This document shows, piece by piece, positions 1-13,141 of a stretch of 64,000 nucleotides of DNA; positions within the stretch are counted from its first letter, which is position 1; the number at the start of each line of letters is the position of its first letter. The notes beneath the pieces were generated by a model. It was not told the DNA's origin. It worked only from the letters and a program-made list of their open reading frames with translations, and ran no database searches. The DNA is from a virus. Lineage: Duplodnaviria > Heunggongvirae > Uroviricota > Caudoviricetes. The stretch covers positions 1 to 64,000 of IMG/VR virus record IMGVR_UViG_2974538492_000001; one strand, given 5' to 3'. A program made the translations under genes and the position numbers.

Positions 1-80
1 CTATAGATGGATAGACTTCTGGCAGTAAAGATGTTCAGATGGATAGACGTATAGACCTCCATACATCTAGATGGATATGT
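1..80 (+). repeat. Three iteron-like direct repeats of (c)agATGGATAGAC/ATGGATATG spaced about 33 nt apart at the window edge
   Basis: gATGGATAGAC at ~6-16 and ~39-49, gATGGATATG at ~71-80; regular ~3-helical-turn spacing; the array may continue upstream of the window. Confidence 0.4.
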
Positions 81-248
81 GTCTGGACGTTTAGACGGCT
101 AAACCGATTTTAGTCTCGATTTTCCATTAGTTCCCCTTCCGCGTCTAGAAAGTTCTAGGCAGAATCGAAAGTCGTCTTTTCGTGTTGACAGAGCTATATT
201 ATCAAATGGGGTTAATGATTGCAAGGACTTTTTTCAATAAAAATAAAT

Positions 249-278
249 TTGACATCTGATTATATAATGTAGTACTAT
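249..278 (+). promoter_or_regulatory. sigma70-like promoter TTGACA-N18-TACTAT feeding the inverted-repeat (IR) element
   Basis: tttGACAtctgattatataatgtagTACTATag; -35 and -10 hexamers with 18-nt spacer. Confidence 0.45.
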
Positions 279-280
279 AG

Positions 281-410
281 TATCAATCCAGCGAAATGGA
301 CTAACCCTATAGGGTGCCGAGATCCGCCTATTAATATATAAAAGCGAATGAGAATCATTACTAATTATAGTTATATTCCCGCACCCTCTAGGGTATCCGA
401 TTTCTCTCGT
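281..410 (+). repeat. IR-flanked structured leader element, copy 1 (left arm CCAGCGAAATGGACTAACCCTATAGGGTGCCGAGATCC, variable AT-rich core, right arm CCGCACCCTCTAGGGTATCCGATTTCTC)
   Basis: Near-identical to the element at 3284-3392; the arms are reverse complements of each other (outer gcgaaat/atttctc, inner ccctatagggtgc/gcaccctctaggg, 1 mismatch each); no plausible ORF. Confidence 0.6.
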
Positions 411-654
411 CTGAAATAATAATATCAAAGTACCGAATAGAATACAAGGATTATTTTTGATTTTTATGAAAATAGTTCAAATCGATTTATACGTATAAAG
501 GAAAGGATTTAAAAGGCGTACAAAAAAGCGGGGTGAATGTATAGCAGTACTATAGAAACGCCGTGTAATGGTTCCTATGCATTGTGGTGGTATGAATACG
601 CATATAAAGGAAAGAAACTTATATAAGGAAAGTATTTGCAATGAATGAAAGAAA

Positions 655-1035
655 GTACTTGCAAAGGTTTAAGGTTATGATACTATCTATTTCGCCAACA
701 AGGAAACGCTCTTTAACAACTTACCGGATGATTACTTGATAGTGATTCTTTACTTTAGAAATAAAGAAAAAGAAAAACGATAAAGTACTTGACGGCAAGA
801 AAGGAAAGTGTAGAATGTTGGTTATCGAAAGGCGGTCAGGTTCGCCGTATGATAGGTAAGGGTAACAGGGCAGAATACAGTACTGTTACAGAGTAGCCAG
901 AAGTGCTACTACAGCCTTATAAAAAGCTAACTAACAGTTAGTGACCTATTTACCGCCTAACGATATAACGAAAAAAGTTTCTAAGAAGTTGAAAAAAGTA
1001 CTTGACTGATAGAAGCAAAACATAGTACGATGTAT
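655..1035 (+). promoter_or_regulatory. Cluster of three tandem sigma70-like promoters upstream of the first gene
   Basis: aaagtacTTGCAAaggtttaaggttaTGATACT (~659-687); gtacTTGACGgcaagaaaggaaagtgTAGAAT (~789-816); gtacTTGACTgatagaagcaaaacatagTACGAT (~1002-1031); all share a GTACTTG extended -35. Confidence 0.45.
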
Positions 1036-1082
1036 CCAAGCCAAACGGCTAATATAACCTAAACTTTTAAGAGGAATTACAA

Positions 1083-1736
1083 ATGACTACTACTAACACT
1101 GCAAAAGTATCTCGTGTAACTTTGAACTCAATCATTTTCGCCACTGCTCCAGTACTGGCAGCACCAGCCGAAGGTGAGACTCACAGTAAAGAAGTAATTG
1201 CACAACACAAATCGTCAATTGCTGAATTTGTATCAAATCAGGGTAAAGAGTTGGCTGGTTTTATTTTGGGTAAAGTTGAAACGCCTGATTTGATTATCGC
1301 GATTATCAAAGAAGCGGCGAAACAAATTCCAGCAGTACAAAAGCAACTGGCAGATGAAGCGGCAGTAATTGCACTTCAAGCAGAAGAACAGCGTGTTAAA
1401 GATGCTGAAGCGGCTGAATTGAAGCGGAAACAGGATGAAGCAGCATTGCAAGCTGAAAAAGACAAAATGCTTAAATTGTTAACTGACGGCGGTTTAGATT
1501 TGGCAATCGCTCAAACAATGGTAGCGGCTGGCCTTAAAGCAAAAGCTCCAGCTAATTCACCAAAAAACAGTTATGAGCGTGTCGCGGTAACCGTTGACGG
1601 TAAAGGCTACGATGTTCCAGTGCGGGGCAACATGAGCGAAGAATTGAAAGCTCTGGTAGCTAAAGATGGCGGGGATCGTGATGCATTTATCGCAAAATAC
1701 CGCAACGAACCAGCCGCACAAGAAGTTACTGAATAA
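1083..1736 (+). CDS. Hypothetical Ala/Glu/Lys-rich protein, 217 aa; GC-richer than its neighbours
   Basis: Strong RBS aagaggaattacaaATG; long ORF with no recognisable catalytic motifs. Confidence 0.8.
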   Translation: MTTTNTAKVSRVTLNSIIFATAPVLAAPAEGETHSKEVIAQHKSSIAEFVSNQGKELAGFILGKVETPDLIIAIIKEAAKQIPAVQKQLADEAAVIALQAEEQRVKDAEAAELKRKQDEAALQAEKDKMLKLLTDGGLDLAIAQTMVAAGLKAKAPANSPKNSYERVAVTVDGKGYDVPVRGNMSEELKALVAKDGGDRDAFIAKYRNEPAAQEVTE

Positions 1737-1884
1737 TATCTCAGTACTGTAATAATAGGGGGCAAACCAGCCCCCTAAGCCGTTCTAATAGTATTTTAAT
1801 ACTAACGTGTTATAGTACTATTAGAAACGCTTAAAAGTCTTTATAGAGCGTTTTATCTTATATCTTAAGTAAGGATAAACGCTT

Positions 1885-2154
1885 ATGCAATTAACCCCAA
1901 TATCTAATTTAATTGATAAAAATACTCGCATCGCTAAAACGATGACAGCCATTAGCAGAACAACATCGGTTTTTAATGGTTATCTTGCTTTTGTTGTTAA
2001 TGGTGAATTAGTACAACGTAGGATCTATGACATGGCATATAATAGTTTATATGATTCGTGTATGTATATAGTTCACAAGAAAGTTAATTATGCCGTTAAT
2101 CTTCCCTGTAAGCCTATTAGCGGAGCGTTTAACGCTGAATCACTAAAGGCATAA
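1885..2154 (+). CDS. Hypothetical protein, 89 aa
   Basis: RBS taaggataaacgcttATG; followed by a rho-independent terminator. Confidence 0.4.
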   Translation: MQLTPISNLIDKNTRIAKTMTAISRTTSVFNGYLAFVVNGELVQRRIYDMAYNSLYDSCMYIVHKKVNYAVNLPCKPISGAFNAESLKA

Positions 2155-2165
2155 GGTAACATAAA

Positions 2166-2199
2166 AAGCCCGTTAGAATAGCTCTGACGGGCTTTTTTT
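2166..2199 (+). terminator. Rho-independent terminator
   Basis: aaaaAGCCCGTtagaatagctctgACGGGCTttttttat. Confidence 0.7.
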
Positions 2200-2213
2200 A
2201 TTTGTTGAAAGTA

Positions 2214-2242
2214 CTTGTATTATAATCTCAGTACTGTATAGT
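2214..2242 (+). promoter_or_regulatory. Early promoter of the GTACTTGTATTATAATCTCAGTACTGTATAGT type
   Basis: CTTGTA -35, 17-nt spacer, TATAGT -10; the same cassette recurs at ~3485 and ~4601. Confidence 0.5.
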
Positions 2243-2276
2243 AACCGTTATCGAAACAACTGACGGACACAACAAA

Positions 2277-2939
2277 ATGAATGCATTTAAGTTAGAGCAG
2301 TATAGAATGACTTTGGAAGTACTGGAACAAATGAAAGATTGTTTAGACCGTGGCGAGACTTATACCACTGTTAAAGGCAAGCCGTTCAACGTTACAAGGC
2401 AATTCGGTATTTGCTGGCACGTGTACGCTCATACGCCTAACCAGAACGTGACAGGGATCGGCACTGACTTTATGTGTCCTGCTTTTGCTGATATGGGCTT
2501 AGATATAGCGTATCCGGTGGAGTGTCAAACAACTGGCAGCCGCGATCAAATGCGTCAGGCATTCAGTGTACAGCGTAACATGTATGACGACAACACGATC
2601 CACGGTGCAAACCGGATCAAGCTGGTGGATTCACTGATCCAGTACTACCGCGAAAAGATGGAAACGCCGATCACTGTTACCATGTATGAACATTATTACA
2701 ATCAAGCCTTGACAGAAATGAAAAGGCGTGATTCAGCTAATGAAGCCGTATGGGATGTTTTGGATTTTGAGAACAATCAGATCTGGCGTGAACTGGCGTT
2801 AAAGATTGTTGACGAAGATCCTACACTGTCAGAAGTGGATCACGCTGCTGGTATTAACTACCCTGATGATCTAACGTTGGAAAATGTAGTTACTACTAAC
2901 TTACAGGAACGAATCCGCGAAGCATTAGAAAAGTTATAA
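2277..2939 (+). CDS. Hypothetical protein, 220 aa
   Basis: Long ORF downstream of a promoter; no motif recognised. Confidence 0.8.
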   Translation: MNAFKLEQYRMTLEVLEQMKDCLDRGETYTTVKGKPFNVTRQFGICWHVYAHTPNQNVTGIGTDFMCPAFADMGLDIAYPVECQTTGSRDQMRQAFSVQRNMYDDNTIHGANRIKLVDSLIQYYREKMETPITVTMYEHYYNQALTEMKRRDSANEAVWDVLDFENNQIWRELALKIVDEDPTLSEVDHAAGINYPDDLTLENVVTTNLQERIREALEKL

Positions 2940-2950
2940 TCTTTACAAAT

Positions 2951-2986
2951 AAGGGGTTGACGGTTCAATCCCTTTTATAGTACTAT
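2951..2986 (+). promoter_or_regulatory. PeSL-like cassette (imperfect hairpin aGGGGTTGAcggtTCAATCCCtttt containing a TTGAC -35, then a TATAGTACTAT -10 region)
   Basis: Matches the recurring hairpin-plus-promoter pattern seen at 4481, 9137, 9751, 11188, 11597 and 12111. Confidence 0.45.
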
Positions 2987-3017
2987 GTAATCACACCAAA
3001 CGAAAGGGGTTACATAA

Positions 3018-3233
3018 ATGAGATTAAGTGAGATTAGAAAAGTACTGAAGGAACTTAACAAGCTGGCGAAAGAATCGGGGAACCTCGATCCAGATATTAA
3101 GTTTTGGAGTGATGATATGGACACTGATTTACTATTAGAACTTTGTCCTGCTGATGATCTCAGTGATTCAGTACTGAAAAGCGGTAATATTCAAATAAGA
3201 TTGAATGAAGTACTTAACCCAAAAGTTAGATAA
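3018..3233 (+). CDS. Hypothetical protein, 71 aa
   Basis: RBS aaggggttacataaATG. Confidence 0.7.
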   Translation: MRLSEIRKVLKELNKLAKESGNLDPDIKFWSDDMDTDLLLELCPADDLSDSVLKSGNIQIRLNEVLNPKVR

Positions 3234-3246
3234 TCTTTACAATTGC

Positions 3247-3284
3247 GGGGGTTGACAGCCTCCGCTTTTTTATGGTACTATAAT
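3247..3284 (+). promoter_or_regulatory. Hairpin-embedded promoter TTGACA-N19-TACTATAAT upstream of IR element copy 2
   Basis: gcggggGTTGACAgcctccgcttttttatggTACTATAAT. Confidence 0.45.
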
Positions 3285-3392
3285 ATCAATCCAGAGAAAT
3301 GGACTAACCCTAGAGGGTGCCGAGATCCATCTATAGAAAATTTAGTCCTTAATAGATATAGTTCCGCACCCTCTAGGGTATCCAATTTCTCT
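3284..3392 (+). repeat. IR-flanked structured leader element, copy 2 (left arm CCAGAGAAATGGACTAACCCTAGAGGGTGCCGAGATCC, right arm CCGCACCCTCTAGGGTATCCAATTTCTC)
   Basis: Outer 7-bp stem (gagaaat/atttctc) and inner 13-bp stem (ccctagagggtgc/gcaccctctaggg) pair perfectly; the ~40-nt core differs from copy 1. Confidence 0.6.
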
Positions 3393-3444
3393 TGTATATA
3401 AGTATTGTACAGTACTGAGATTATAATTACAAGGGGTAAACAGA

Positions 3445-3514
3445 AATAAAAATTAAAATTAAAACGAAAAAAGAACTTGTATTATAATCTCAGTACTGTA
3501 CAATTCTCTATATC
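3445..3514 (+). promoter_or_regulatory. Early promoter module: UP-like tract AAAATTAAAATTAAAACGAAAAAAG, -35 AACTTGT, -10 TACAAT
   Basis: aaaattaaaattaaaacgaaaaaagaaCTTGTAttataatctcagtactgTACAATtctctatatcgaaaacgggag; a conserved module repeated across the window. Confidence 0.55.
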
Positions 3515-3532
3515 GAAAACGGGAGAAATGAT

Positions 3533-3988
3533 ATGAATTCAAAACAGTTCCAAGATGCAACAAGAGAAACATTTTTAAAGTACTTTCCTCATGGTCACAT
3601 AAGCATTTCTATGTTGGCAATAGGTGGTGGTTGTAATATCTTTTGTGGCTTGATTGGAGACATTAATGATGTAGGTGGTAAGATCCGCATGAATGATCCT
3701 GTAACGGTACGGGCTTATATTCATGATAACTTTTCATTTAATGATGAAAGTACTGAATTGGAAAACGTTGTTATTGAGTTCGATGGTTCGTGGATCTCAG
3801 TACTGCCAGACAATCCGCATCATTATTGTCAATCCCACAAGGTGCCAAGTCGCAAGATTAACGCAGAACCTAAAAAGGCATTAAGTAATTTGGATAAGTA
3901 CTTTAAACGATTAAAGGACTGTGTAACAGAGCAAGCAGGATTAAATCGCATTATTCAGCAGGATAAGATCCCAGCGAAATATCTATAA
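3533..3988 (+). CDS. Hypothetical protein, 151 aa
   Basis: RBS aacgggagaaatgatATG inside the conserved leader. Confidence 0.75.
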   Translation: MNSKQFQDATRETFLKYFPHGHISISMLAIGGGCNIFCGLIGDINDVGGKIRMNDPVTVRAYIHDNFSFNDESTELENVVIEFDGSWISVLPDNPHHYCQSHKVPSRKINAEPKKALSNLDKYFKRLKDCVTEQAGLNRIIQQDKIPAKYL

Positions 3989-3994
3989 TATATT

Positions 3995-4036
3995 GTCAAA
4001 AGTACTTGCATTGTATAAGCGAGTACTTTACAATAA
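3995..4036 (+). promoter_or_regulatory. Early promoter GTACTTGCAT-N17-TACAAT
   Basis: aaaagtacTTGCATtgtataagcgagtacttTACAATaag. Confidence 0.55.
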
Positions 4037-4063
4037 GTTATCGTTAATTGAGAGGATTCGAAT

Positions 4064-4474
4064 ATGTTACATGTTAAAGGTTTTTCTGAGGGTGGTTATT
4101 GCTTTATGATTGGTGATAAGCCTGTTTCTGTTGTTGAAGCATTGCAGAAAAATGGTAAGAAATTTAACAAGAATACATTAAACGCTTTAAATAGAAATAA
4201 TCTTGCTAATGAAAGCGATCTTGTGTCATTTGAGTTACAAGTACAATCATTACATAAAGGATTAACACCTGAATATGTAATTCAAATTTTACGCAATGAA
4301 TATAATATTGATTTTAATAATGATTTTCATGAGTTAAGTTCTGCCAGCGTACTGGATTTATTAACAGTATATCATATTGCACAATATCGAGCACCCTCAC
4401 CATGTAATCGTGATGGTTCGCCAATGCGTTATTTTTACCAGTACTTACAACGCTTCATAGAAAAGAAAAAATAA
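4064..4474 (+). CDS. Hypothetical protein, 136 aa
   Basis: RBS attgagaggattcgaatATG. Confidence 0.75.
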   Translation: MLHVKGFSEGGYCFMIGDKPVSVVEALQKNGKKFNKNTLNALNRNNLANESDLVSFELQVQSLHKGLTPEYVIQILRNEYNIDFNNDFHELSSASVLDLLTVYHIAQYRAPSPCNRDGSPMRYFYQYLQRFIEKKK

Positions 4475-4480
4475 TCAAAT

Positions 4481-4554
4481 AAGGGGTTGACTTCGGTTAA
4501 CCCTTTTTGCTATACTAATATTACTCCAGAGAAATGGACTAACCTTATAAGGTG
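4481..4554 (+). promoter_or_regulatory. PeSL-like cassette (hairpin aaGGGGTTGACttcGGTTAACCCCttttt with TTGACT -35, GCTATACT -10) followed by a solo left arm of the IR element (CCAGAGAAATGGACTAACCTTATAAGGTG)
   Basis: Hairpin plus 18-nt spacer plus TATACT; the arm lacks a partner right arm. Confidence 0.5.
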
Positions 4555-4566
4555 TATAAGTGTACC

Positions 4567-4629
4567 TATAATAAAATAATTAAAATTCATACAAAAAAGT
4601 ACTTGTATTATAATCTCAGTACTGTATAA
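4567..4629 (+). promoter_or_regulatory. Early promoter module (AATAATTAAAATTCATACAAAAAAGTACTTGTATTATAATCTCAGTACTGTATAAT)
   Basis: UP-like tract, CTTGTA -35, TATAAT -10. Confidence 0.55.
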
Positions 4630-4662
4630 TTCTTTATATCGAAAACAAACGAGGGTTTTTAA

Positions 4663-5085
4663 ATGAGAACATGTAAAGAGTGTGGGAACAATTGCAACGT
4701 ATTATCTAATGGTGTTGTCCATCATTACAACGAGGATGATAAAATTGATTATGATCTAGATGGGGATCATGTTGCAATACCTGAATTATCTGATTCTGAA
4801 AACAACATGTTAAATCCAATTCTTCAAAGTACTTTTAATTTTAATGGTGATGTTCCTTGTATTAACTACGCCGCGAATGGTGGAGGTTATGAAACTTACC
4901 AGTACTTCATTTGTGCTGATGGTGGATGTTTAGGAATTGGAACAGTAATTAATGAGTTTCATAAAGTAAACTTTAATGATCCTGATGATAAACAATGGCA
5001 CATTGTAGGGGTTGACGTGAATTATGAAAATACTAATCTGATAGATGATCACACAGGGGATTATATACCAGTAGCATATAGTTAA
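4663..5085 (+). CDS. Hypothetical Cys-containing protein, 140 aa
   Basis: Leader tatatcgaaaacaaacgagggtttttaaATG; CxxC at the N-terminus. Confidence 0.75.
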   Translation: MRTCKECGNNCNVLSNGVVHHYNEDDKIDYDLDGDHVAIPELSDSENNMLNPILQSTFNFNGDVPCINYAANGGGYETYQYFICADGGCLGIGTVINEFHKVNFNDPDDKQWHIVGVDVNYENTNLIDDHTGDYIPVAYS

Positions 5086-5093
5086 CACTACAA

Positions 5094-5117
5094 CGGGGAT
5101 CATTGATCCCCTTTTGA
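5094..5117 (+). terminator. Rho-independent terminator
   Basis: caacGGGGATCattGATCCCCttttgagg. Confidence 0.6.
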
Positions 5118-5123
5118 GGTTAT

Positions 5124-5384
5124 ATGAATTTGTTTTATAGTACTAGAAAATTAGTAGTTTCATTTGATTGTAATTCTGATAAAATACATTGTGTAATATA
5201 CAGAAAAGGAATTCCCCGTTCTGATAACTGGAAAGTACTACAATCCTATACAATCAAACGTAAAGGGTTTAAACAGTTAGATGACCGTACACAAAAGGCA
5301 TGTTTACGGCAAGTACTTAAAGCCATGCGTAACCGTATAACGCAAGCCTTACATGTTGCATTAACTACAAAAGATATTTTATAA
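5124..5384 (+). CDS. Hypothetical basic protein, 86 aa
   Basis: ORF directly after the terminator; RBS ttgaggttatATG. Confidence 0.6.
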   Translation: MNLFYSTRKLVVSFDCNSDKIHCVIYRKGIPRSDNWKVLQSYTIKRKGFKQLDDRTQKACLRQVLKAMRNRITQALHVALTTKDIL

Positions 5385-5400
5385 TATAATGAAAAAGTAC

Positions 5401-5429
5401 TGGACAATGCTCCGGTACTTTGTTATAGT
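5401..5429 (+). promoter_or_regulatory. sigma70-like promoter TGGACA-N17-TATAGT
   Basis: gtacTGGACAatgctccggtactttgtTATAGTact. Confidence 0.4.
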
Positions 5430-5477
5430 ACTTACATCGAAGAGAAATTCGAATAGCCCATAGGGTTCAGGGGTATA

Positions 5478-5542
5478 TCTATTAAAAATAATTAAAATTA
5501 AAATGAAAAAGAACTTGCATTATATTATGGTTATGGTAATAT
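5478..5542 (+). promoter_or_regulatory. Early promoter module (AATAATTAAAATTAAAATGAAAAAGAACTTGCAT-N17-TAATAT)
   Basis: UP-like tract, TTGCAT -35, then the conserved leader atcgaaacgggagg. Confidence 0.5.
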
Positions 5543-5570
5543 ATGTATATCGAAACGGGAGGTTAAAGAA

Positions 5571-5639
5571 ATGAAACTACGTTATCAATGGCTGTTGTTT
5601 GCTTTGTTTATCCTTATTACCTGCGTAAACTTTGATTAG
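5571..5639 (+). CDS. Tiny hydrophobic ORF (22 aa, MKLRYQWLLFALFILITCVNFD) directly behind the conserved leader
   Basis: Excellent RBS cgggaggttaaagaaATG; could be a leader peptide or a mini membrane protein. Confidence 0.3.
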   Translation: MKLRYQWLLFALFILITCVNFD

Positions 5640-5649
5640 GGGTTATATT

Positions 5650-5991
5650 ATGATGATTGTTAATTTTGGTGATGATATCAATTTCAATAGTATTAAGCAT
5701 ATTATTGAAAATAGTCAATCTGTATCTATTACTTTATGTTCTGGCGATGGTGATGATTTTACGGTGATAGAGCGTGAAAGAAGTAAATTTGCTGGTTTTC
5801 ATGAGGCTGATCTTATTGTTATTAGTACTGTACGGAATGCTAATGGTGATGGTATCTATGTATATCCTGAATACTTCACTATTGAACAGGCAGACACTGC
5901 TATTGAAGCCTTAAAAATAAGGGCGAGTGATACTAACATTAAATCATCTGAATTATCGGATTCATTAACTGATTTATTAGAATCGGAATAA
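5650..5991 (+). CDS. Hypothetical acidic protein, ~113 aa
   Basis: The ORF track starts at a TTG at 5632; the internal ATG ATG at 5650 follows ttaGGGGTtatatt. Confidence 0.55.
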   Translation: MMIVNFGDDINFNSIKHIIENSQSVSITLCSGDGDDFTVIERERSKFAGFHEADLIVISTVRNANGDGIYVYPEYFTIEQADTAIEALKIRASDTNIKSSELSDSLTDLLESE

Positions 5992-5994
5992 CAT

Positions 5995-6036
5995 ATTAAA
6001 AGTACTTGCATTATATTAGCGAGTACTTTATAATAA
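5995..6036 (+). promoter_or_regulatory. Early promoter GTACTTGCAT-N18-TATAAT
   Basis: aaaagtacTTGCATtatattagcgagtactttaTAATaag. Confidence 0.55.
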
Positions 6037-6056
6037 GTTATCAAGTGAGGTACACA

Positions 6057-6104
6057 ATGAAATGGTTAATTATAGCAGTACTGATTTACATTATCTTTTT
6101 TTAA
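6057..6104 (+). CDS. Tiny hydrophobic ORF (15 aa, MKWLIIAVLIYIIFF)
   Basis: RBS aagtgaggtacacaATG directly after the promoter; a second mini hydrophobic ORF like the one at 5571. Confidence 0.25.
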   Translation: MKWLIIAVLIYIIFF

Positions 6105-6123
6105 TCAAGAGGAAGTATTAAAA

Positions 6124-6333
6124 ATGGCACATAAAGATCGTCGTTACAATGTTAACCCTGAATTTACCGGACACGAATCAGGCAAGAAACAATTTGTTAT
6201 TCGTTTTTGTGGTGATTTTGTTTCTTCGCATTCAAAGCGTGATGAAGCAGAAAAAGAGATCGCCCGATGGAAAAGTACTGGAACCGTTCCACATATCGGA
6301 AAGCAATGGGATAATCTAGTTGAACCTGTTTAA
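6124..6333 (+). CDS. Hypothetical protein, 69 aa
   Basis: RBS caagaggaagtattaaaaATG. Confidence 0.7.
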   Translation: MAHKDRRYNVNPEFTGHESGKKQFVIRFCGDFVSSHSKRDEAEKEIARWKSTGTVPHIGKQWDNLVEPV

Positions 6334-6483
6334 TTAATCAATATTAATAGTACTGGATATTTCACCAGTACTGTTTTTTTATACAGCATAATATATAATA
6401 GATACATTTTCGCACCCTGTGGGTCAAAGACATTTCGCTGTCTATGAAGTAATAATACAGTATTTTGATATACGTGTCAAGGA

Positions 6484-6541
6484 TTAAATTAAAATTAAAA
6501 CAAAAGAAAGTACTTGCATTAAGTATGAAGTACTGTATAAT
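6484..6541 (+). promoter_or_regulatory. Early promoter module (AAATTAAAATTAAAACAAAAGAAAGTACTTGCAT-N16-TATAAT)
   Basis: UP-like tract, TTGCAT -35, TATAAT -10, then leader tatatcgaaacgggag. Confidence 0.55.
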
Positions 6542-6568
6542 CTTTTATATCGAAACGGGAGAATTAAA

Positions 6569-6835
6569 ATGAGTAACGCATTGAAAGCCATGATTTCGTT
6601 GGTAATTTCAGTACTGATAACCTTTATAATATTAACTGCGGCGAGAGATGATGTTCTGTGGCGGTTAACCATGTTAGGATATGAAATTGAAGATACATGG
6701 TATTCTTTTTTGACATATGGCCTTAATGGGATATATGCTATATTAATGGTAGGTTGTTTTTATATTTTGTTTTGTTTAATGTTTTATATTACAGGGGGCA
6801 GTAATGAGAGTACAACCAATCCAGCCAATCATTAA
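6569..6835 (+). CDS. Small membrane protein, 88 aa, 2-3 predicted TM helices
   Basis: Hydrophobic stretches LVISVLITFIILTAA and GIYAILMVGCFYILFCLMFYI. Confidence 0.6.
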   Translation: MSNALKAMISLVISVLITFIILTAARDDVLWRLTMLGYEIEDTWYSFLTYGLNGIYAILMVGCFYILFCLMFYITGGSNESTTNPANH

Positions 6836-6974
6836 GTTAGCGAATAGTACGGTCAAGAATGAATATTCAAAAATTGTTGTTGACATTCCGTGTAGTACTG
6901 TGGTATCATTAGGTTCTTACAAATCGTGTGATTTGTATAATTCAATTTATAAACAATAAAAGGTAAATTTAAAT

Positions 6975-7832
6975 ATGGGTAAGTTCATTAGTTATGGTAT
7001 TCTTGCGATTATTGTATTCGTTGGCTTGGGTGCATTGTTTGGTTCGTGGTACACGGTTGATCAGCAAGATCGTGGGGTAGTACTAACGAATGGTAAAATT
7101 ACCAGTATTGCAGAACCTGGTTTGAACTGGAAAATGCCATTTATGGATTCTGTTGTACAAATTCCAGTCACTGGACAAAATAAAAGTTATTCGAATCTAA
7201 AAGCATATAGCCGAGATCAACAACCGGCAGATATGACTATTTCTGTATCATTCTCAGTCCCAGCGGCTAAGGTAGGGGAATTATATAGTACTTTTGGTGA
7301 TATTGACAATCTAACTACTCGTGTTATTGATCGTCAAGTACCACAAGCTGTTGAAAATGTTTTTGGTCAGTTTAATGCGATTTCAGCAGTACAAGATCGT
7401 AATAAGTTAGTTACTAACTTAAACATTGCAATTAAAAAGGCAATGGAAAACTACCCAGTAGTAATTGAGAGTGTACAGGTTGAAAACCTATCATTCAGTC
7501 CAGCATATGAAAAATCAATTGAAGAACGTATGCAAGCAGAGATCGCAGTTACAAAGCGTGAACAGGACTATGCACAGGCTAAAATTTCAGCATCTATCAC
7601 AGTTGCGAATGCACAAGCTGACGCTGATAGCCAGTTAGCAAAGGCAACGGCAGCAGCTAAAGCAACACGCCTACAGGGTGAAGCTGATGCAGCAGCAATT
7701 AAGGCGAAGTCCGAAGCACTAAACAATAATCCACAACTTGTACAGTTGGCGGCGGTGGATAAATGGGATGGTGTACTACCTACTCAAATGGTTCCATCTG
7801 CTACAGTGCCGTTTGTGAATCTAAACAAATAA
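6975..7832 (+). CDS. SPFH/band-7 (prohibitin/HflKC-like) domain protein with N-terminal membrane anchor
   Basis: N-terminal TM (ILAIIVFVGLGALFG); ordered alternation of hydrophobic and charged residues typical of the SPFH fold; Ala/Gln-rich coiled-coil C-terminus (QAEIAVTKREQDYAQAKISASITVANAQADADSQLAKATAAAKA). Confidence 0.7.
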   Translation: MGKFISYGILAIIVFVGLGALFGSWYTVDQQDRGVVLTNGKITSIAEPGLNWKMPFMDSVVQIPVTGQNKSYSNLKAYSRDQQPADMTISVSFSVPAAKVGELYSTFGDIDNLTTRVIDRQVPQAVENVFGQFNAISAVQDRNKLVTNLNIAIKKAMENYPVVIESVQVENLSFSPAYEKSIEERMQAEIAVTKREQDYAQAKISASITVANAQADADSQLAKATAAAKATRLQGEADAAAIKAKSEALNNNPQLVQLAAVDKWDGVLPTQMVPSATVPFVNLNK

Positions 7833-7845
7833 GTACTATCACAAA

Positions 7846-7872
7846 AAGCCTCGCATTGTCGAGGCTTTTTAT
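7846..7872 (+). terminator. Rho-independent terminator
   Basis: aaaaAGCCTCGcattgtCGAGGCTttttatt. Confidence 0.7.
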
Positions 7873-7880
7873 TATCTGAA

Positions 7881-7937
7881 TAATTAAAATTAAAACGTAA
7901 AAAGTACTTGCATTGCATGAGCGAGTACTTTATAATA
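7881..7937 (+). promoter_or_regulatory. Early promoter module (AATAATTAAAATTAAAACGTAAAAAGTACTTGCAT-N18-TATAAT)
   Basis: Textbook copy of the recurring UP / -35 / -10 module. Confidence 0.6.
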
Positions 7938-7964
7938 CTTACATCAACCACAAGAGGCAACAAC

Positions 7965-8321
7965 ATGAAAACTGAATTTTTCGCGACAAGAACACTGGCA
8001 CGTAACGCGGTAGAAGCTCTTAATGGTAAGTTTAAAGATTTTGGTAAAGATGCTCCTACTGGTGAACGTTGGGGGGTGCTGGTGGATGAAGTACTACCAG
8101 TACAAAAGGAACAACCTGTACTTGCAGAAGAAAAAAGTAATCTTGACGTACACCTTGATTTTCTTAGTACTGTAGCAGAAGATGCAGCAAAAGCATTGAA
8201 TCAGCCAACTGGCATTCGTGGGGAACAAACGTTAACAACACCAAATAAGAAGCCTGTACGGGTTATGTGGCGTCGTTCAATTGTGGCGGTACGTTTGTCG
8301 GCACTACTGGCAAAATCGTAA
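7965..8321 (+). CDS. Hypothetical protein, ~118 aa
   Basis: The ORF track starts at 7908, inside the promoter; the internal ATG at 7965 follows RBS caagaggcaacaacATG and lies after the predicted transcription start. Confidence 0.65.
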   Translation: MKTEFFATRTLARNAVEALNGKFKDFGKDAPTGERWGVLVDEVLPVQKEQPVLAEEKSNLDVHLDFLSTVAEDAAKALNQPTGIRGEQTLTTPNKKPVRVMWRRSIVAVRLSALLAKS

Positions 8322-8332
8322 CACAAACCAGT

Positions 8333-8362
8333 GGGGGCGGTATAATGCCCCCTTTATTAATC
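8333..8362 (+). terminator. Hairpin terminator
   Basis: gtGGGGGCggtataatGCCCCCtttatt. Confidence 0.5.
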
Positions 8363-8370
8363 GAGATCAT

Positions 8371-8613
8371 ATGAAAAAAGTTAAAGTTGATAATACACAA
8401 TTACGCATACATTTCAAGGCACAAACAAAAGTACTTGATAAGGCTATTCGTATTGTGAAAGATTATAATAATGGAAGTGTTAGAGCTAGACGGTTAGGGT
8501 GTGGTTTATTTTCAGTAATAGATGTATCACATAACGAACGGATCGTTATTAAAAATAAAACACTTAATTTAATGACTCATGAACAATATAATAAATTCGT
8601 CGAACGACGTTGA
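8371..8613 (+). CDS. Hypothetical basic protein, ~80 aa
   Basis: The ORF track start at 8281 overlaps the previous gene and the terminator hairpin; internal ATG at 8371 (MKKVKVDN...). Confidence 0.45.
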   Translation: MKKVKVDNTQLRIHFKAQTKVLDKAIRIVKDYNNGSVRARRLGCGLFSVIDVSHNERIVIKNKTLNLMTHEQYNKFVERR

Positions 8614-8669
8614 CATAATCCCCTAAATATGTATAATAATAATTATACACGATTAGGGGATTTTTTATT

Positions 8670-9131
8670 ATGCCTGATAAATTTAAACATAAGAATGGTG
8701 CTACTATAGCAGGTCATGCCGATAAGTGGAGTGATGAAAATCGTTCAAGTACTAGCCATGATGCAGGTCAAGGCAGTAAAGGAAGTAGAAATCAAGGTAC
8801 AGGAATTAAAGGTAAACAAAACGCAATGCCATCACAAGGTATTGATACATCCAAAATGGATAAGTCCGAAAAATTAAAGTACTTTAATTCATTGGGTTTA
8901 CTTCAACCAAAACAAGAATTATCTATTAAAACATGGCCTGAAACATTACGCAAAGTGTTTAAAGATGAACCTGTATACATTAAAGATATTACTACAGCGA
9001 TAAAATCTATTGAACCAGCAAGATATCAACAAGCCATTCAATCAGCATTCAATGCTTATAACGAAATTACAAAACAATCAGATGATGTTTATGATATATA
9101 TGCCGCAATTATGCAAGCATTACAAGGTTAA
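8670..9131 (+). CDS. Hypothetical protein, 153 aa, Gly/Lys-rich N-terminal half
   Basis: ORF after the hairpin aatcccctaa...ttaggggatttttt. Confidence 0.65.
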   Translation: MPDKFKHKNGATIAGHADKWSDENRSSTSHDAGQGSKGSRNQGTGIKGKQNAMPSQGIDTSKMDKSEKLKYFNSLGLLQPKQELSIKTWPETLRKVFKDEPVYIKDITTAIKSIEPARYQQAIQSAFNAYNEITKQSDDVYDIYAAIMQALQG

Positions 9132-9136
9132 AAATA

Positions 9137-9170
9137 AGGGTTGACTTAGGTTAACCCTTTTGCTATTGTA
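9137..9170 (+). promoter_or_regulatory. PeSL-like cassette (aaGGGTTGACttaGGTTAACCCtttt GCTATTGT)
   Basis: Hairpin with embedded TTGACT -35 and an 18-nt spacer to a TATTGT -10-like hexamer. Confidence 0.45.
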
Positions 9171-9197
9171 TCAGTACACAAACATAAGGAATATATT

Positions 9198-9548
9198 ATG
9201 AAAAAGTTATTATTACTCGCTGCATTGTTTAGTACTACAGTTTCAGCTCAAACATTTACATGTGATAACTTTACTCTGTATCAAGGTATCGGGAATAATC
9301 AATACAGACAAGTAGATGATGCAGGTGTACAATCATCTTTGATTATTACTATTGAAAGTACTGAACCATTGATTACCGTTTCTGTACAAGGTGATAAAGA
9401 AGTAGTGCAATTCTGGAAAGATTATAATGTATACAGAAATGTAACTGGTGAAATTTCACAAGATGGTAATAATTTTATAATGAAAACAGCTATACAAGAT
9501 AGTACTGGATTTTATATACCTGTTAAAATTGAGTACCATTGTAAATGA
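9198..9548 (+). CDS. Secreted/periplasmic small protein, 116 aa, with signal peptide
   Basis: MKKLLLLAALFSTTVSA-QTF has the n-, h- and c-regions of a Sec signal; RBS cataaggaatatattATG. Confidence 0.7.
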   Translation: MKKLLLLAALFSTTVSAQTFTCDNFTLYQGIGNNQYRQVDDAGVQSSLIITIESTEPLITVSVQGDKEVVQFWKDYNVYRNVTGEISQDGNNFIMKTAIQDSTGFYIPVKIEYHCK

Positions 9549-9742
9549 AATTATCATTTCAATTTATGCAAAAACGTGTACAGTACTTAAGTACTAAACT
9601 TAAAGCATCATTTGAATTACAATATACTATTAACCAGAATTATCATTTAATGAAGAATGGAAGATTCATTGTTATGGATCAACCGCTTGAAGTACTGGAA
9701 ATAGTAGTAAGTGCATTATTAAGTAATAACATTAAAAAATAA
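9545..9742 (+). CDS. Hypothetical protein, 65 aa, overlapping the previous stop (ATGA)
   Basis: Translational coupling; modest coding signal. Confidence 0.45.
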   Translation: MKLSFQFMQKRVQYLSTKLKASFELQYTINQNYHLMKNGRFIVMDQPLEVLEIVVSALLSNNIKK

Positions 9743-9750
9743 TTAAATCA

Positions 9751-9822
9751 AGGGTTGACAGATGTTAACCCTTTTTGCTATACTACTATCAATCCAGCGA
9801 AATGGACTAACCCTATAGGGTG
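9751..9822 (+). promoter_or_regulatory. PeSL-like cassette (aGGGTTGACAgatGTTAACCCttttt GCTATACT) plus a solo left arm of the IR element (ATCAATCCAGCGAAATGGACTAACCCTATAGGGTG)
   Basis: TTGACA-N18-TATACT; the arm is identical to the 287-320 arm but has no partner. Confidence 0.5.
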
Positions 9823-9864
9823 TATAGTTATGTCAGTACTTTTATTATATGCATAGAAAAAAGA

Positions 9865-9917
9865 ATTTAAAATTAAAATGAAAAAGTACTTGTGTTAGAT
9901 GCTGGAACTGATAGAAT
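9865..9917 (+). promoter_or_regulatory. Early promoter module (AATTTAAAATTAAAATGAAAAAGTACTTGTGT-N17-TAGAAT)
   Basis: UP-like tract, TTGTGT -35, TAGAAT -10. Confidence 0.5.
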
Positions 9918-9947
9918 GTAGTTATTGAAACAACGGGAGTAAATGAA

Positions 9948-10187
9948 ATGGCTAATAAAGAAGTGGAATTTAAAATTAGAAAATGGTCAGATACTAACGG
10001 TCGTCCATTTGATGTAGTGCTGGTGGATCATTTAAAGAACAATCAGCATTTTCAGCCTAATGTTGAATTTAGTACTATCGAACATGCTGAAAAGCATATG
10101 GAAACTTTGAATACTTTAATTCAAAATCATCCTGACCGTATCAACTTTATTCGTGACCATTGGCCTGTTGATGCTGGTATAGAATAA
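9948..10187 (+). CDS. Hypothetical protein, 79 aa
   Basis: RBS aacgggagtaaatgaaATG. Confidence 0.75.
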   Translation: MANKEVEFKIRKWSDTNGRPFDVVLVDHLKNNQHFQPNVEFSTIEHAEKHMETLNTLIQNHPDRINFIRDHWPVDAGIE

Positions 10188-10237
10188 AAATTAAAACGTA
10201 AAAAGTACTTGACTATATCAGTTGAGTACTTTAAAAT
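10187..10237 (+). promoter_or_regulatory. Early promoter module (AAAAATTAAAACGTAAAAAGTACTTGACT-N17-TAAAAT)
   Basis: UP-like tract, TTGACT -35, TAAAAT -10. Confidence 0.5.
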
Positions 10238-10270
10238 AGAATCTTAATTAACGCAATAGGAAACTAAATC

Positions 10271-11164
10271 ATGAAAATGTACAAAGGCATCGCAGGTAAA
10301 GCAATCAAAGAAAACCGTCCACTGCTAAGATCAGAACTGGAATTAGTTGTTCCATCTATCTTTTCAAGTACTGGTCACGAATCACGTTCAGCCCGTTTTG
10401 CACCTGTTGCAACCATCGACGTTGTAGACCGTTTAGCAAAAGAAGGTTATCAACCATTCTTTGCTATTCAGTCCAATGTACGTGACGAATCTAAACGCGA
10501 ATTCACTAAGCATATGCTGCGTTTCCGTCAACATGATGGCAAAACATCCGGCGAATCTAATGAGATCATTCTCGTTAACGCAAATGATGGAACAAGTGCA
10601 TACCAATTAATGGCTGGTCAATTCCGTTTCGTTTGTGCTAATGGTCTGGTTATGGGTAACATGCAACATAACACAAAAATCTATCACAAAGGTAACAATA
10701 TCATGGATGACGTGATCGAAGGCGTCTATTCAGTAGTGAAAGATTTTGATAACATTGAACGTTATAAAGATGAAATGCAACTAATACAACTCAATGATAT
10801 CGAACGTAAAACGTTTGCAACTGCTGGTTATCTCATGAAAGAGGGTATGCCGGAATCAGGTTCAATGGATGACTTTGTATATAATCCATTACAACTATTA
10901 TCACGTTCAGGTCTAAACAGTCAAGACCAGTACGATAATAGTTTGTATAGTACTTTTAATACTGTACAACAACACTTAATCAACGGTGGTCAACGCTCAT
11001 TCATGGAAGATCGTAATGGTCGTACTCGCCGCCGGTCAAGCCGTAGCGTTACTAATATCAATAAGAACATTGATATCAATAGTAACTTATGGCAACTCGC
11101 TACCGCTCTGGTAGAGAAGAATACTAAGGTAGTGCATGATATCGTTGATGCACAATTAGCATAA
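10271..11164 (+). CDS. Hypothetical protein, 297 aa; a DUF932-type phage/plasmid protein is a possibility
   Basis: Long well-formed ORF with RBS aggaaactaaatcATG; family assignment is a guess from size and context only. Confidence 0.75.
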   Translation: MKMYKGIAGKAIKENRPLLRSELELVVPSIFSSTGHESRSARFAPVATIDVVDRLAKEGYQPFFAIQSNVRDESKREFTKHMLRFRQHDGKTSGESNEIILVNANDGTSAYQLMAGQFRFVCANGLVMGNMQHNTKIYHKGNNIMDDVIEGVYSVVKDFDNIERYKDEMQLIQLNDIERKTFATAGYLMKEGMPESGSMDDFVYNPLQLLSRSGLNSQDQYDNSLYSTFNTVQQHLINGGQRSFMEDRNGRTRRRSSRSVTNINKNIDINSNLWQLATALVEKNTKVVHDIVDAQLA

Positions 11165-11187
11165 AAAATAAGTACTAAAATCATATA

Positions 11188-11222
11188 AGGGGTTGACTTA
11201 GGTTAACCCCTTTTGCTATACT
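11188..11222 (+). promoter_or_regulatory. PeSL-like cassette (aaGGGGTTGACttaGGTTAACCCCtttt GCTATACT)
   Basis: The most canonical copy: 8-bp stem, TTGACT-N18-TATACT. Confidence 0.55.
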
Positions 11223-11252
11223 TATTTTATCGAAACAAACGAGGGTTAGTAA

Positions 11253-11588
11253 ATGTTAGATGTATATGTAAGTTCTGATTTAGTTTCAAATGGTAGAAAT
11301 GAATTCGGTACTGAACAAGAAAAAACAGAGTACTACATCATTGCAGAATCTCTAAATGGTCAACGTATTAGATTAGATAGTGTGTCAGTTGTTAATAGAG
11401 AATACACTGATACACAATGTACTGAGTACTTAGAACGTGTAGTTACAAAGATTAAAAATCATTTAGCTGGTGGCGGTAAGTTGAATCAAGATTGTTGGTA
11501 CGAAATAGATCCTTGCTATGGTTCACAACGTTATATCGATTTGGATAGTACTGGTTACTTTTATCAACGTGAGAAACTCGAAGATTAA
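11253..11588 (+). CDS. Hypothetical protein, 111 aa
   Basis: Leader tatcgaaacaaacgagggttagtaaATG. Confidence 0.75.
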   Translation: MLDVYVSSDLVSNGRNEFGTEQEKTEYYIIAESLNGQRIRLDSVSVVNREYTDTQCTEYLERVVTKIKNHLAGGGKLNQDCWYEIDPCYGSQRYIDLDSTGYFYQREKLED

Positions 11589-11596
11589 TAATAATG

Positions 11597-11630
11597 GGGT
11601 TGACTATAGTTAGCCCCTTTTGTTATAATT
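11597..11630 (+). promoter_or_regulatory. PeSL-like cassette (tGGGGTTGACtatagTTAGCCCCtttt GTTATAAT)
   Basis: Hairpin with TTGACT and a TGTTATAAT extended -10. Confidence 0.5.
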
Positions 11631-11659
11631 CTTATACACCATCACGAAAGGAAAGAAAC

Positions 11660-11857
11660 ATGACCAGAGAAGAAAGAATTGAAGCCGCTCATAAAGTACT
11701 GTCATACAAACATCTTGAAATGATGGAAGCTATGGAAAGAGTACTAGGCACGTTTGGCGAAGAAAATAAAGATAAATTCGCCGCCGTATATGATGAAGTT
11801 GAAAACATTCTTTATCCGCATGGTGCGGGTGAAGATGCAGTATACTGCGAAAATTAA
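11660..11857 (+). CDS. Hypothetical protein, ~65 aa
   Basis: The ORF track start at 11594 lies inside the PeSL hairpin; internal ATG at 11660 with RBS acgaaaggaaagaaacATG. Confidence 0.6.
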   Translation: MTREERIEAAHKVLSYKHLEMMEAMERVLGTFGEENKDKFAAVYDEVENILYPHGAGEDAVYCEN

Positions 11858-11869
11858 TAATTGACAAAC

Positions 11870-11898
11870 TCTGTCAGTACTGATATACTGGCAGAATA
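11870..11898 (+). promoter_or_regulatory. sigma70-like promoter TTGACA-N17-TATACT
   Basis: aaTTGACAaactctgtcagtactgaTATACTggc. Confidence 0.55.
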
Positions 11899-11918
11899 TT
11901 AAATCAGAGGATACAATC

Positions 11919-12101
11919 ATGGTTCAAGTAGATATGACTGAATTGCGGAAACGTTGGTATGATCTGGCACGTTCAGGTACTGCTATCACTGGTGATAATA
12001 GAACGCTTTTCAATACACTTGATGGCTGGCAACGTCAAGAATTAAAAAATGCATATCTTAAAGGTATGACAGATGAAGTGCAAGCATGGGATGAAGCATA
12101 A
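11919..12101 (+). CDS. Hypothetical protein, 60 aa
   Basis: RBS atcagaggatacaatcATG. Confidence 0.65.
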   Translation: MVQVDMTELRKRWYDLARSGTAITGDNRTLFNTLDGWQRQELKNAYLKGMTDEVQAWDEA

Positions 12102-12110
12102 TTAAAAATA

Positions 12111-12183
12111 AAGGCTTGACTTAGGTTAAGCCTTTTGCTATAGTACTATCAATGCAGCGAAATGCACTAACCCTATAGGGTGC
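12111..12183 (+). promoter_or_regulatory. PeSL-like cassette (aaGGCTTGACttaGGTTAAGCCtttt GCTATAGT) plus a variant solo left arm (ATCAATGCAGCGAAATGCACTAACCCTATAGGGTGCGG)
   Basis: Compensatory G-to-C changes preserve the stem (GGCTTgac / gtTAAGCC); the arm differs at 2 positions from the consensus. Confidence 0.5.
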
Positions 12184-12204
12184 GGAGCTATGTCTGTAAA
12201 AGAT

Positions 12205-12259
12205 ATTAAAATTCAAATGAAAAGTACTTGACCTATATAGCTGGTGGATGATATATTAT
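12205..12259 (+). promoter_or_regulatory. Early promoter (AAAATTCAAATGAAAAGTACTTGACC-N17-GATATAT)
   Basis: UP-like tract plus TTGACC -35; the -10 hexamer is ambiguous within gatgatatattat. Confidence 0.4.
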
Positions 12260-12288
12260 TAGTACTGGATGCAACCGAGGGCAATACT

Positions 12289-12561: not shown

Positions 12562-12626
12562 TATTATATATACATCGAACGGGGACAGGGAACATAATGT
12601 TACCGCCTGATTCGGGAGATTCAATC

Positions 12627-13076: not shown

Positions 13077-13081
13077 AGTAC

Positions 13082-13110: not shown

Positions 13111-13141
13111 GTCGGTGGCTTAGTCTATTGAGGAATAGCAT

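Follow-up and report, generated by a model that had tools for sequence, protein, structure and literature searches.

The early regions of T4-type phages contain promoter-early stem-loops (PeSLs), in which a terminator hairpin is joined to a near-consensus sigma-70 early promoter, and which recur between the genes of this plastic part of the genome (Arbiol et al. 2010, PMC2839356; Comeau et al. 2014, PMC4122927). A terminator stem-loop fused to a sigma-70-like early promoter is likewise found between genes of Yersinia phage fHe-Yen9-04, whose bases 1-64000 are identical to the 64,000-nucleotide stretch analysed here (the window). Here, a repeated unit was identified that very probably constitutes an early transcription unit, in which a strong sigma-70-like promoter is followed, 2-3 nt past the predicted start, by a structured RNA module of ~49 nt. 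With its genome of 354,378 bp, fHe-Yen9-04 (genus Eneladusvirus) belongs to the Rak2-like jumbo myoviruses and is not, as a first-pass annotation of the window had assumed, a T4-like phage in the narrow sense. The first 14 kb of the window hold 27 short plus-strand genes, nearly all annotated "hypothetical protein".

Anatomy and distribution of the units

The first-pass annotation had described two copies of a 110-130 nt element bounded by inverted repeats, and three solo left arms. The inverted-repeat arms are real and their sequence matches that description. The left-arm pattern GAAATGGACTAACCCTAKAGGGTG (24 nt) occurs on the plus strand at 293, 3296, 4531, 9799 and 12159 with at most two mismatches, where shuffled sequences give an expectation of zero, and copy 1 has a single mismatch in the inner stem, where copy 2 has none. 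Reading the arms in their own orientation, with 60 nt of upstream sequence each, we found that every arm is a separate unit: a sigma-70-like promoter and then, from about +3, a predicted transcribed module of ~49 nt. The module consists of a hairpin of 3-4 bp (HP1), whose stem may have any sequence and whose loop is rich in A or purines (GNGAAA in the window), a second hairpin (HP2) of the form RCCC-(3-4 nt)-GGGU, and a conserved tail, GC GGAGAU NYRU CUAU.

There are nine units in the window, six on the plus and three on the minus strand, all in the first 12.2 kb (Table 1). Two of them had been missed before, a diverged plus unit at 5435-5483 and a minus unit at 6397-6445. In all nine the -10 hexamer ends 14-15 nt before GAAAT, and a "CA" start motif lies 2-3 nt ahead of the first hairpin. 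Promoters and starts are consensus predictions, which place the starts of copy 1 at ~285 (+) and 412 (-) and those of copy 2 at 3288 (+) and 3397 (-). The right arms are copies of the unit on the minus strand, behind minus-strand promoters and 14 nt downstream of their own -10 hexamers; each full copy is therefore a pair of promoter-linked units that face each other, with unit starts ~128 bp (copy 1) and ~110 bp (copy 2) apart, and not single elements with a left and a right end. The solo arms, which had been suspected to be excision or recombination scars, are complete units. They do lie directly behind a terminator-hairpin/promoter cassette, and the motif does stand at the 5′ end of predicted early transcripts, both as previously proposed. 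As to the cores of the full copies, thought to be unrelated AT-rich sequence, they are not wholly unrelated: their outer parts are conserved unit tails (GCCGAGATCC..CTAT) and their centre is a small palindrome conserved among relatives. A minus-strand open reading frame at 234..428 (64 aa, TTG start) exists but can be judged spurious, as had been suggested, since it spans both units and starts upstream of the point (~412) at which minus-strand transcription is predicted to begin.

Table 1. Promoters, cassettes and units in the first 12.2 kb of the window (promoters, starts, terminators and RNA sizes are predictions)
Feature	Position	Strand	Sequence elements	Basis
Promoter of unit 1	249..278	+	TTGACA-18-TACTAT; predicted start A285	independent consensus scan
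Unit 1 (left arm, copy 1)	284..332	+	HP1 CCA-GCGAAA-TGG; HP2 ACCC-TATA-GGGT; tail GCCGAGATCCGCCTAT	covariance model, 67.8 bits, E ~1e-15
Unit 2 (right arm, copy 1)	366..413	-	HP1 CGA-GAGAAA-TCG; HP2 ACCC-TAGA-GGGT	covariance model, 59.5 bits
Promoter of unit 2	419..447	-	TTGTAT-17-TATTAT; predicted start ~412	read from sequence, scored; conserved in BF and pEa50
PeSL-like cassette of unit 3	3245..3281	+	terminator hairpin 3245-3265; -35 TTGACA in stem; -10 TACTAT 3276-3281	terminator-like and promoter-like scan lists
Unit 3 (left arm, copy 2)	3287..3335	+		covariance model, 69.8 bits
Unit 4 (right arm, copy 2)	3351..3398	-	HP1 CAA-GAGAAA-TTG	covariance model, 62.8 bits
Promoter of unit 4	3404..3432	-	TTGTAA-17-TACAAT; inverted copy of plus promoter 3481-3507	inverted repeat I5 (27 nt, 96% complementary)
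Cassette and unit 5	4487..4570	+	TTGACT-18-TATACT 4487-4516; unit 4522-4570; HP2 compensated variant ACCT-TATA-AGGT	promoter scan, covariance model
Promoter and diverged unit 6	5401..5483	+	TGGACA-17-TATAGT 5401-5429; unit 5435-5483; HP1 GAA-GAGAAA-TTC; HP2 GCCC-ATA-GGGT	promoter scan; covariance model, 47.8 bits
Putative small RNA gene, unit 7	6349..6480	-	promoter TTGACA-17-TATTAT 6480-6452; unit 6445-6397; terminator-like hairpin 6372-6349; predicted RNA ~100 nt	promoter also in independent scan; covariance model
Cassette and unit 8	9755..9838	+	terminator/promoter 9755-9784; unit 9790-9838	scan, covariance model
Cassette and unit 9	12116..12198	+	terminator/promoter 12116-12144; unit 12150-12198; HP1 GCA-GCGAAA-TGC	scan, covariance model

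A covariance model built from 45 units recovered exactly the nine window units (47.8-69.8 bits) and reported no further unit at 12.2-64 kb, 64-114 kb or 304-354 kb. The model covered 164 of the 354 kb, and the remaining 190 kb were searched by blastn with the consensus, which matched five places in the whole record; of these the best, 284-331, was listed, and the other four are presumably the known near-consensus plus-strand units of the first 12 kb. Among the relatives, the same model detected a single unit in XaC1 and several in each of BF, GAP32, CBB, fENko-Kae01 (Kae01), RaK2, XbC2 and the E. coli phage fEgEco12, where they number up to ten and lie in early or terminal-repeat DNA; units of pEa50 and Munch were found by pattern search. 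All 65 model matches in the nine relatives scanned lie behind a TTGACA-17/18-TAnnnT promoter, whose -10 ends 20-28 nt before HP2 in a count that leaves out ~15 of 64 units, on which the script had mis-anchored at HP1.

The units occur within the first 12-20 kb only. In relatives with determined physical ends, DNA homologous to the window start belongs to a direct terminal repeat (CBB, 22,456 bp; fENko-Kae01, 19,736 bp; fEgEco12, 20,993 bp) and lies ~1 kb in from the left end, and in these three phages the units are inside the repeat. At the very start of the fHe-Yen9-04 record, near the presumed left end of its terminal repeat, window positions 1-130 contain repeats of GATGGATAGAC at 6-16 and 38-48, with a variant at 46-56.

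Outside this group the motif was hardly detected. Among 50,697 phage records, blastn with the consensus matched Rak2-like jumbo phages only, save a few weak partial matches (E 0.3-0.9) in other phages. A unit used as blastn query had no match in 5,426 E. coli genomes, hence neither host mimicry nor a host copy, and an exact 16-mer gave only scattered single matches in unrelated high-GC genomes among 596 Gb of bacterial genomes, which is uninformative, as ~280 are expected by chance. Rfam 15 had no match at the units (cmscan of window 1-14000, E up to 1); the scan returned four weak leader-type matches, at 2073-2202 and 7814-7953, none overlapping a unit. Those at 7814-7953, on both strands, were to the rimP and Leu leaders and scored below the gathering threshold (E 0.011-0.07); they were rejected, as the site is only a bidirectional terminator (AAAAAGCCTCG...CGAGGCTTTTT). 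Under promoter, terminator, hairpin or stem-loop, the CBB and fEgEco12 genome papers contain no passage on such a leader motif, and our literature search found no transcriptome or transcript map for the Rak2-like group (including fHe-Yen9-04, fENko-Kae01 and phAPEC6). The RNA motif is thus undescribed, being absent from Rfam and from the Rak2-like genome papers examined.

Base pairing within units and between facing units

The three inner pairs of HP1 were 100% paired in distinct sequences, with three pair types each and 6-19 double changes. Double changes were seen at 4/4 HP1 pairs, and the observed covariation was reached by 0/500 shuffles. HP1 pairing amounted to 80-88%, versus 12-49% when the partner was slid. 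Distant copies kept the short stem around other A-rich loops (AGAUAA, AGAACAA and GGAACAAA), and in the orthologous first unit the stem reads CCA/TGG in fHe-Yen9-04 and AAA/TTT in BF. A model-derived alignment leans toward the model's own structure and the seed units were chosen with a pairing filter; HP1 is supported independently by divergent model matches and by a stem-blind search, in which the window and eleven loci from relatives were scanned for the loop G-N-R-AAA and for CCY-N3-4-RGG only. This pattern matched 60 times. All three HP1 pairs were present in 55 matches, every one of which (55/55) was behind a promoter, while the other five had 0/3 pairs and resemble coding DNA by eye. The first-pass annotation had made its RNA interpretation depend on conservation and covariation in related phages; since the motif is conserved in the relatives and HP1 covaries, we conclude that it is an RNA-level element.

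HP2 is near-invariant. It tolerates loops of 3 or 4 nt, its closing pair alternates between A-U and G-U, and compensated changes have arisen twice independently, as CCU/AGG (window 4526) and as CUC/GAG (XbC2). RNAalifold pointed to an alternative helix, mutually exclusive with HP2, in which GGGUG pairs with the tail segment YRYCY. The two segments are pairable in 97.6% of alignment cells, versus 32-72% in slid controls, and five tail positions vary by transitions only, which keeps wobble pairing with GGGUG. The invariance of its 5′ strand leaves this helix without double compensation. One natural variant has an intact HP2 and a broken alternative helix, and in another it is the reverse. Two other readings of the tail were dropped: a third hairpin (CGG-AGAT-CCG) was paired in 55% of cells and forms in the "GATCCG" subtype only, and a sigma-dependent pause or second promoter would involve -10-like positions that are unconserved in the alignment.

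These patterns bear on whether the selected element could be DNA. HP2 is a DNA palindrome, ACCCTATAGGGT, on which a repressor operator or roadblock could be built; alternatively, the G cluster GGGTGCGGAG and the AT-rich DNA that follows many units could serve a transcription-primed R-loop origin, and a DNA element would be expected to function in either orientation, as the units appear to. We consider this explanation very unlikely. The HP2 loop of 3 or 4 nt shifts the spacing of the half-sites, and the HP1 stem is free in sequence yet complementary. Moreover, the A-U/G-U alternation and the transition-only variation of the tail fit the RNA of one strand only, for G-U wobble works only there.

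The proposal of a single long RNA hairpin was assessed on the face-to-face pairs. The predicted folds of window segments 281-412 (-34.2 kcal/mol; z = -3.2 versus shuffles) and 3284-3396 (-46.4 kcal/mol; z = -7.6) are indeed long hairpins, very stable on the minus strand too, and could in principle be substrates for RNase III processing or stability control. We compared local with arm-to-arm pairing at the variable HP1 stem columns in 11 convergent pairs from six phages: local pairing was found in 64/64 cells and arm-to-arm pairing in 26/62, about chance. Five of the nine window units are solo and no U-tract follows the long stem; neither the terminator tool nor our own scan called a terminator-like site in either window pair. 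The arms are complementary because two copies of one conserved motif face each other, and the long hairpin is a by-product of this arrangement, not a selected structure. It fails as an explanation of the motif, and may be a secondary property of the pairs.

The pairs themselves are conserved in place and geometry. A pair is present at the left end in six relatives (in a seventh, XaC1, by eye only), and pairs are syntenic in BF, pEa50, CBB, GAP32, XbC2 and Kae01, phages of four genera plus ungrouped relatives. Their unit starts are 111 ± 1 bp apart in 8/13 pairs and 128-130 bp in 3/13. This would suit a switch based on convergent double-stranded RNA or transcription interference, like the 186 and P2 promoters. 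The minus unit of pair 1 points toward the minus-strand operon g531c-g527c, so that the pair could arbitrate between leftward and rightward transcription. With the pairing data and the solo units against it, such a long-hairpin or switch explanation of the unit is improbable, though a switch, too, may be a secondary property of the pairs. Just left of the record junction, ~1.5 kb from this minus unit and in the direction in which it points, the record holds a minus-strand tandem array (347518-353255) of five paralogues annotated "regulator of chromosome condensation" (RCC1-like).

Hardly credible, finally, is a miniature inverted-repeat transposable element (MITE), which had been suggested by the multiple copies and the imperfect 28-bp inverted ends. 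No direct repeat flanks copy 1 (GTATCAAT / TCGTCTGA) or copy 2 (ATATCAAT / TTGTATAT); each arm comes with a promoter of its own, always equally far away; the pairs keep their syntenic place in different genera, their divergence matching that of the flanks; and the solo units are complete and covarying. Presence/absence polymorphism at varied sites was not found either. The near-identical phages fHe-Yen9-03 and fHe-Yen9-04 differ at 2261-3268 and 3467-3992 by a cassette replacement and insertions with boundaries at promoter cassettes, that is, by gene-cassette swaps and not by element insertions. Their homology breaks at 2260 and resumes at 3269, in the -10 of the plus promoter of pair 2, and the additional genes of fHe-Yen9-03 lie between duplicated copies of promoters.

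Context and possible function of the units

About one third of the units are antisense to the all-plus-strand gene block. Among them, all minus-strand solo units (10/10, seven phages) are followed, 18-25 nt on, by a terminator-like and often bidirectional hairpin, with no downstream gene. The ten were taken from fHe-Yen9-04, BF, CBB, GAP32, XbC2, RaK2 (two), Kae01 (two) and fEgEco12 (one). These units are predicted to yield RNAs of ~100 nt that have no cargo gene.

The plus solo units stand upstream of a full second promoter, with an AT-rich UP-like stretch, -35 and -10 hexamers, a conserved leader ATATCGAAA and a ribosome-binding site. As this promoter is complete, the downstream gene does not depend on the promoter of the unit. 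Terminator/promoter cassettes that have no unit are found directly before genes elsewhere, e.g., at 2957-2986 and 11193-11222. The unit thus behaves, judging from its arrangement, like an optional insert that brings its promoter along and can take either orientation.

Promoters of the second class were noted at 3469-3520, 4595-4646, 5507-5556 and 6506-6557. They have an AT-rich upstream stretch and AAAGTACTTG...TATAAT, their initial transcribed sequence is ATATCGAAA, directly followed by the ribosome-binding site, and they never carry a unit. In the terminator hairpins at 4483-4516, 9750-9784, 11189-11222 and 12110-12144, the -35 TTGAC of the next promoter lies in the stem and the T-run serves as spacer, so that terminator and promoter overlap very compactly. 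Hairpin and promoter were both on the scan lists at 3245-3281 and 9750-9784, whereas at 4487-4516 and 12116-12144 the promoter alone was listed and the hairpin was read from the sequence. The promoters at 249-278 and 5401-5429 and all minus-strand promoters have no hairpin.

The position of the unit, immediately promoter-proximal in early transcripts, raises the possibility that it acts in cis on elongation, in the manner of lambda nut and HK022 put, and that the nascent 5′ module, with or without an N-like protein or Nus factors, would make RNA polymerase terminator-resistant and give long delayed-early RNAs. The early region is dense in intrinsic terminators, and the purine-rich loop of HP1 resembles the boxB hairpins of lambda and P22. 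The phage also appears to use antitermination: an exact rrn-type boxA, GCTCTTTAACAA, is found at 708-719, in a 1-kb gene-free region at the left, ~25 nt past a promoter at ~664-693. It is exact in fHe-Yen9-03, BF and pEa50 as well, and GCTCTTTAAAAA is found at the corresponding position past the first pair in GAP32, CBB and XbC2. This suggests that, in transcribing its early region rightward, the phage makes use of antitermination by host Nus factors. However, this only boxA is separate from the units, whose alignments contain no boxA. The terminators behind the minus units weaken this explanation further: in 10/10 cases read-through would produce antisense RNA only, and one third of all units are antisense to genes. 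No N-, Q- or NusG-like protein was recognised by Pfam and PHROGs among the ten nearest proteins (g001-g010), for which families of unknown function were the only matches, although N proteins are too small and divergent to be excluded in this way. Altogether we regard antitermination by the unit as unlikely. The region around this boxA, 440-1082, comprises ~640 bp with no annotated gene and at least three promoter-like sites (~664-693, 789-816 and 1002-1031), one with a ~180-nt leader, and possibly carries further non-coding RNAs.

Another possibility is that the module stabilises or directs the processing of its transcript, with a stem-loop 2-4 nt from the 5′ triphosphate that blocks RppH and RNase E, as does the ompA 5′ hairpin. 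Few unpaired 5′ nucleotides are known to protect against RNase E, and HP1 begins at about +3/+4 from the predicted start in all units. Yet a 3-bp stem is a weak protector, and such a role would not explain the invariant HP2, GGGUG and tail or the conserved A-rich loop, nor why minus units have no cargo and why units are confined to the terminal repeat. We judge it a little less probable even than antitermination.

We tentatively favour, at a chance that falls somewhat short of even, the view that the unit produces an autonomous small RNA and is neither half of a hairpin, nor a mobile element, nor merely an mRNA leader. It is favoured because of the cargo-less, terminated antisense copies, the orientation independence, the multiple strong promoters, the restriction to the terminal repeat and the sequence-invariant structured positions. 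By analogy with phages such as T5, the terminal repeat would be among the first DNA to enter the cell, and the units would be transcribed from it in many copies. Minus solo units would be released as ~100-nt RNAs by the nearby terminator, paired units would end in, or collide over, each other's complement, and plus solo units would read on into a gene that has its own promoter. The module might toggle between two folds, HP2 and the GGGUG/tail helix, and act through the invariant HP2/GGGUG core and the A-rich loop, most likely on a conserved host or phage protein to which it would bind as a decoy or regulatory RNA. What the sequences show is the anatomy of the units, their conservation, their pairing at the RNA level and their genomic context; the production of these RNAs, their ends and any action in trans or partner are what we infer.

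Several observations weigh against an autonomous small RNA. The starts, ends and abundance of the RNAs are predictions. HP1 has just 3-4 bp. The alternative helix, weak and rich in G-U, is the predicted dominant fold in 10/64 units versus 35/64 for HP2. For most plus solo units the next 220 nt contain no terminator, and their module, if not processed, is physically a 5′ leader. Five of the ten minus solo units are orthologous, leaving ~6 independent cases, and some of the terminators behind minus units are the upstream gene's own. Copies could be partly homogenised by recombination between cassettes. No partner or target was found, the neighbouring proteins being uninformative in Pfam and PHROGs and the E. 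coli genomes having no match.

More ambitiously, the units could define a new class of small RNAs, ~50-nt 5′-triphosphate modules with two states that would act in trans on an Enterobacterales-wide factor in the first minutes of infection, with facing pairs doubling as a transcription-interference device. Candidate targets would be an RNA-binding regulator, a nuclease or a defence sensor, for which the RNA could be a decoy; with ~nine promoters per terminal repeat, a packaged genome would carry ~18. We see this as doubtful.

The Rak2-like jumbo phages, >80% of whose genes have no known function, include phages of E. coli, Klebsiella, Salmonella and Yersinia that are considered for therapy. In this background, a covariation-supported RNA motif, present in every Rak2-like member examined and confined to the terminal repeat where the ends are known, offers precise predictions on transcription starts, on antisense RNAs of ~100 nt and on two helices that exclude each other. 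As some of its carriers are phages of E. coli, a tractable host is at hand. The analysis also corrects an attractive but wrong transposon or long-hairpin reading of the locus, and it indicates that PeSL-type cassettes, known from T4-like phages, can carry a transcribed module with a putative function.

Two further features of the genome were noted. The region 100148-108346 of the record contains an annotated RNA ligase (g174), an "RNA-binding protein" (g176), a ribosome hibernation factor-like protein (g181), a tRNA nucleotidyltransferase (g183) and a nudix hydrolase (g184). Pfam confirmed the RNA ligase domain in g174, assigned DUF2828 and DUF7788 to g176 and matched g181 to the S30AE family. 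The cluster is possibly an RNA repair module; no link between it and the units was shown. The idea of g176 as a Ro-like partner, with the long hairpins as Y-RNA-like molecules, found no support in a literature search and no sequence evidence. The hexamer AGTACT occurs 254 times in the 64 kb versus ~21 expected (~12-fold), and nine other A/T-rich palindromic hexamers occur 12-45 times each. Its excess is equal at 64-114 kb and 304-354 kb, and the sites are in promoters, terminator stems and coding DNA.

Comparison with known systems

Compared with the known systems, the cassettes most resemble PeSLs. In fHe-Yen9-04 the -35 hexamer is inside the terminator stem, and the replacement boundaries between fHe-Yen9-03 and fHe-Yen9-04 are at promoter cassettes, as proposed for PeSLs. 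The descriptions of PeSLs include no conserved transcribed module, whereas in fHe-Yen9-04 it is the part downstream of the promoter that covaries; the unit is also found behind non-PeSL promoters and on the antisense strand.

The likenesses to other systems, namely boxB hairpins, face-to-face switches, RNase III sites and protein-sequestering sRNAs, are analogies, since their defining features, where tested, were not found. Like lambda nut (boxA/boxB) and HK022 put, the unit is a short structured RNA just past early promoters, with a purine-rich loop and an rrn-type boxA nearby. Unlike them, it contains no boxA itself, is present in nine or more copies with no N-like protein identified, and in one third of cases is antisense and runs into terminators with no cargo. 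The pairs are reminiscent of the convergent promoters of coliphages 186 (pR/pL) and P2 (Pe/Pc) in their spacing of ~110-130 bp, their overlapping predicted transcripts and their conserved place near the start of the early region, but both promoters of fHe-Yen9-04 carry the same RNA module and the phage is virulent. A read-through RNA of a pair would form an imperfect duplex of >20 bp between early genes, as do the RNase III hairpins of T7 early mRNA; this duplex, however, is not maintained by covariation, and solo units cannot form it. Nor do the pairs have the GC-rich stem and directly following U-tract of an intrinsic terminator.

With protein-sequestering and Hfq-type small RNAs (CsrB, 6S and terminator-ended sRNAs) the units share multiple copies, strong promoters, structure and the absence of coding cargo, and in the minus solo units an AU-rich spacer precedes the terminator. 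They differ in having no sequence or structure match in Rfam, and in carrying the module at the 5′ end rather than as a body of seed plus terminator. What HP1 has in common with structured RNAs in general is compensatory change across homologues.

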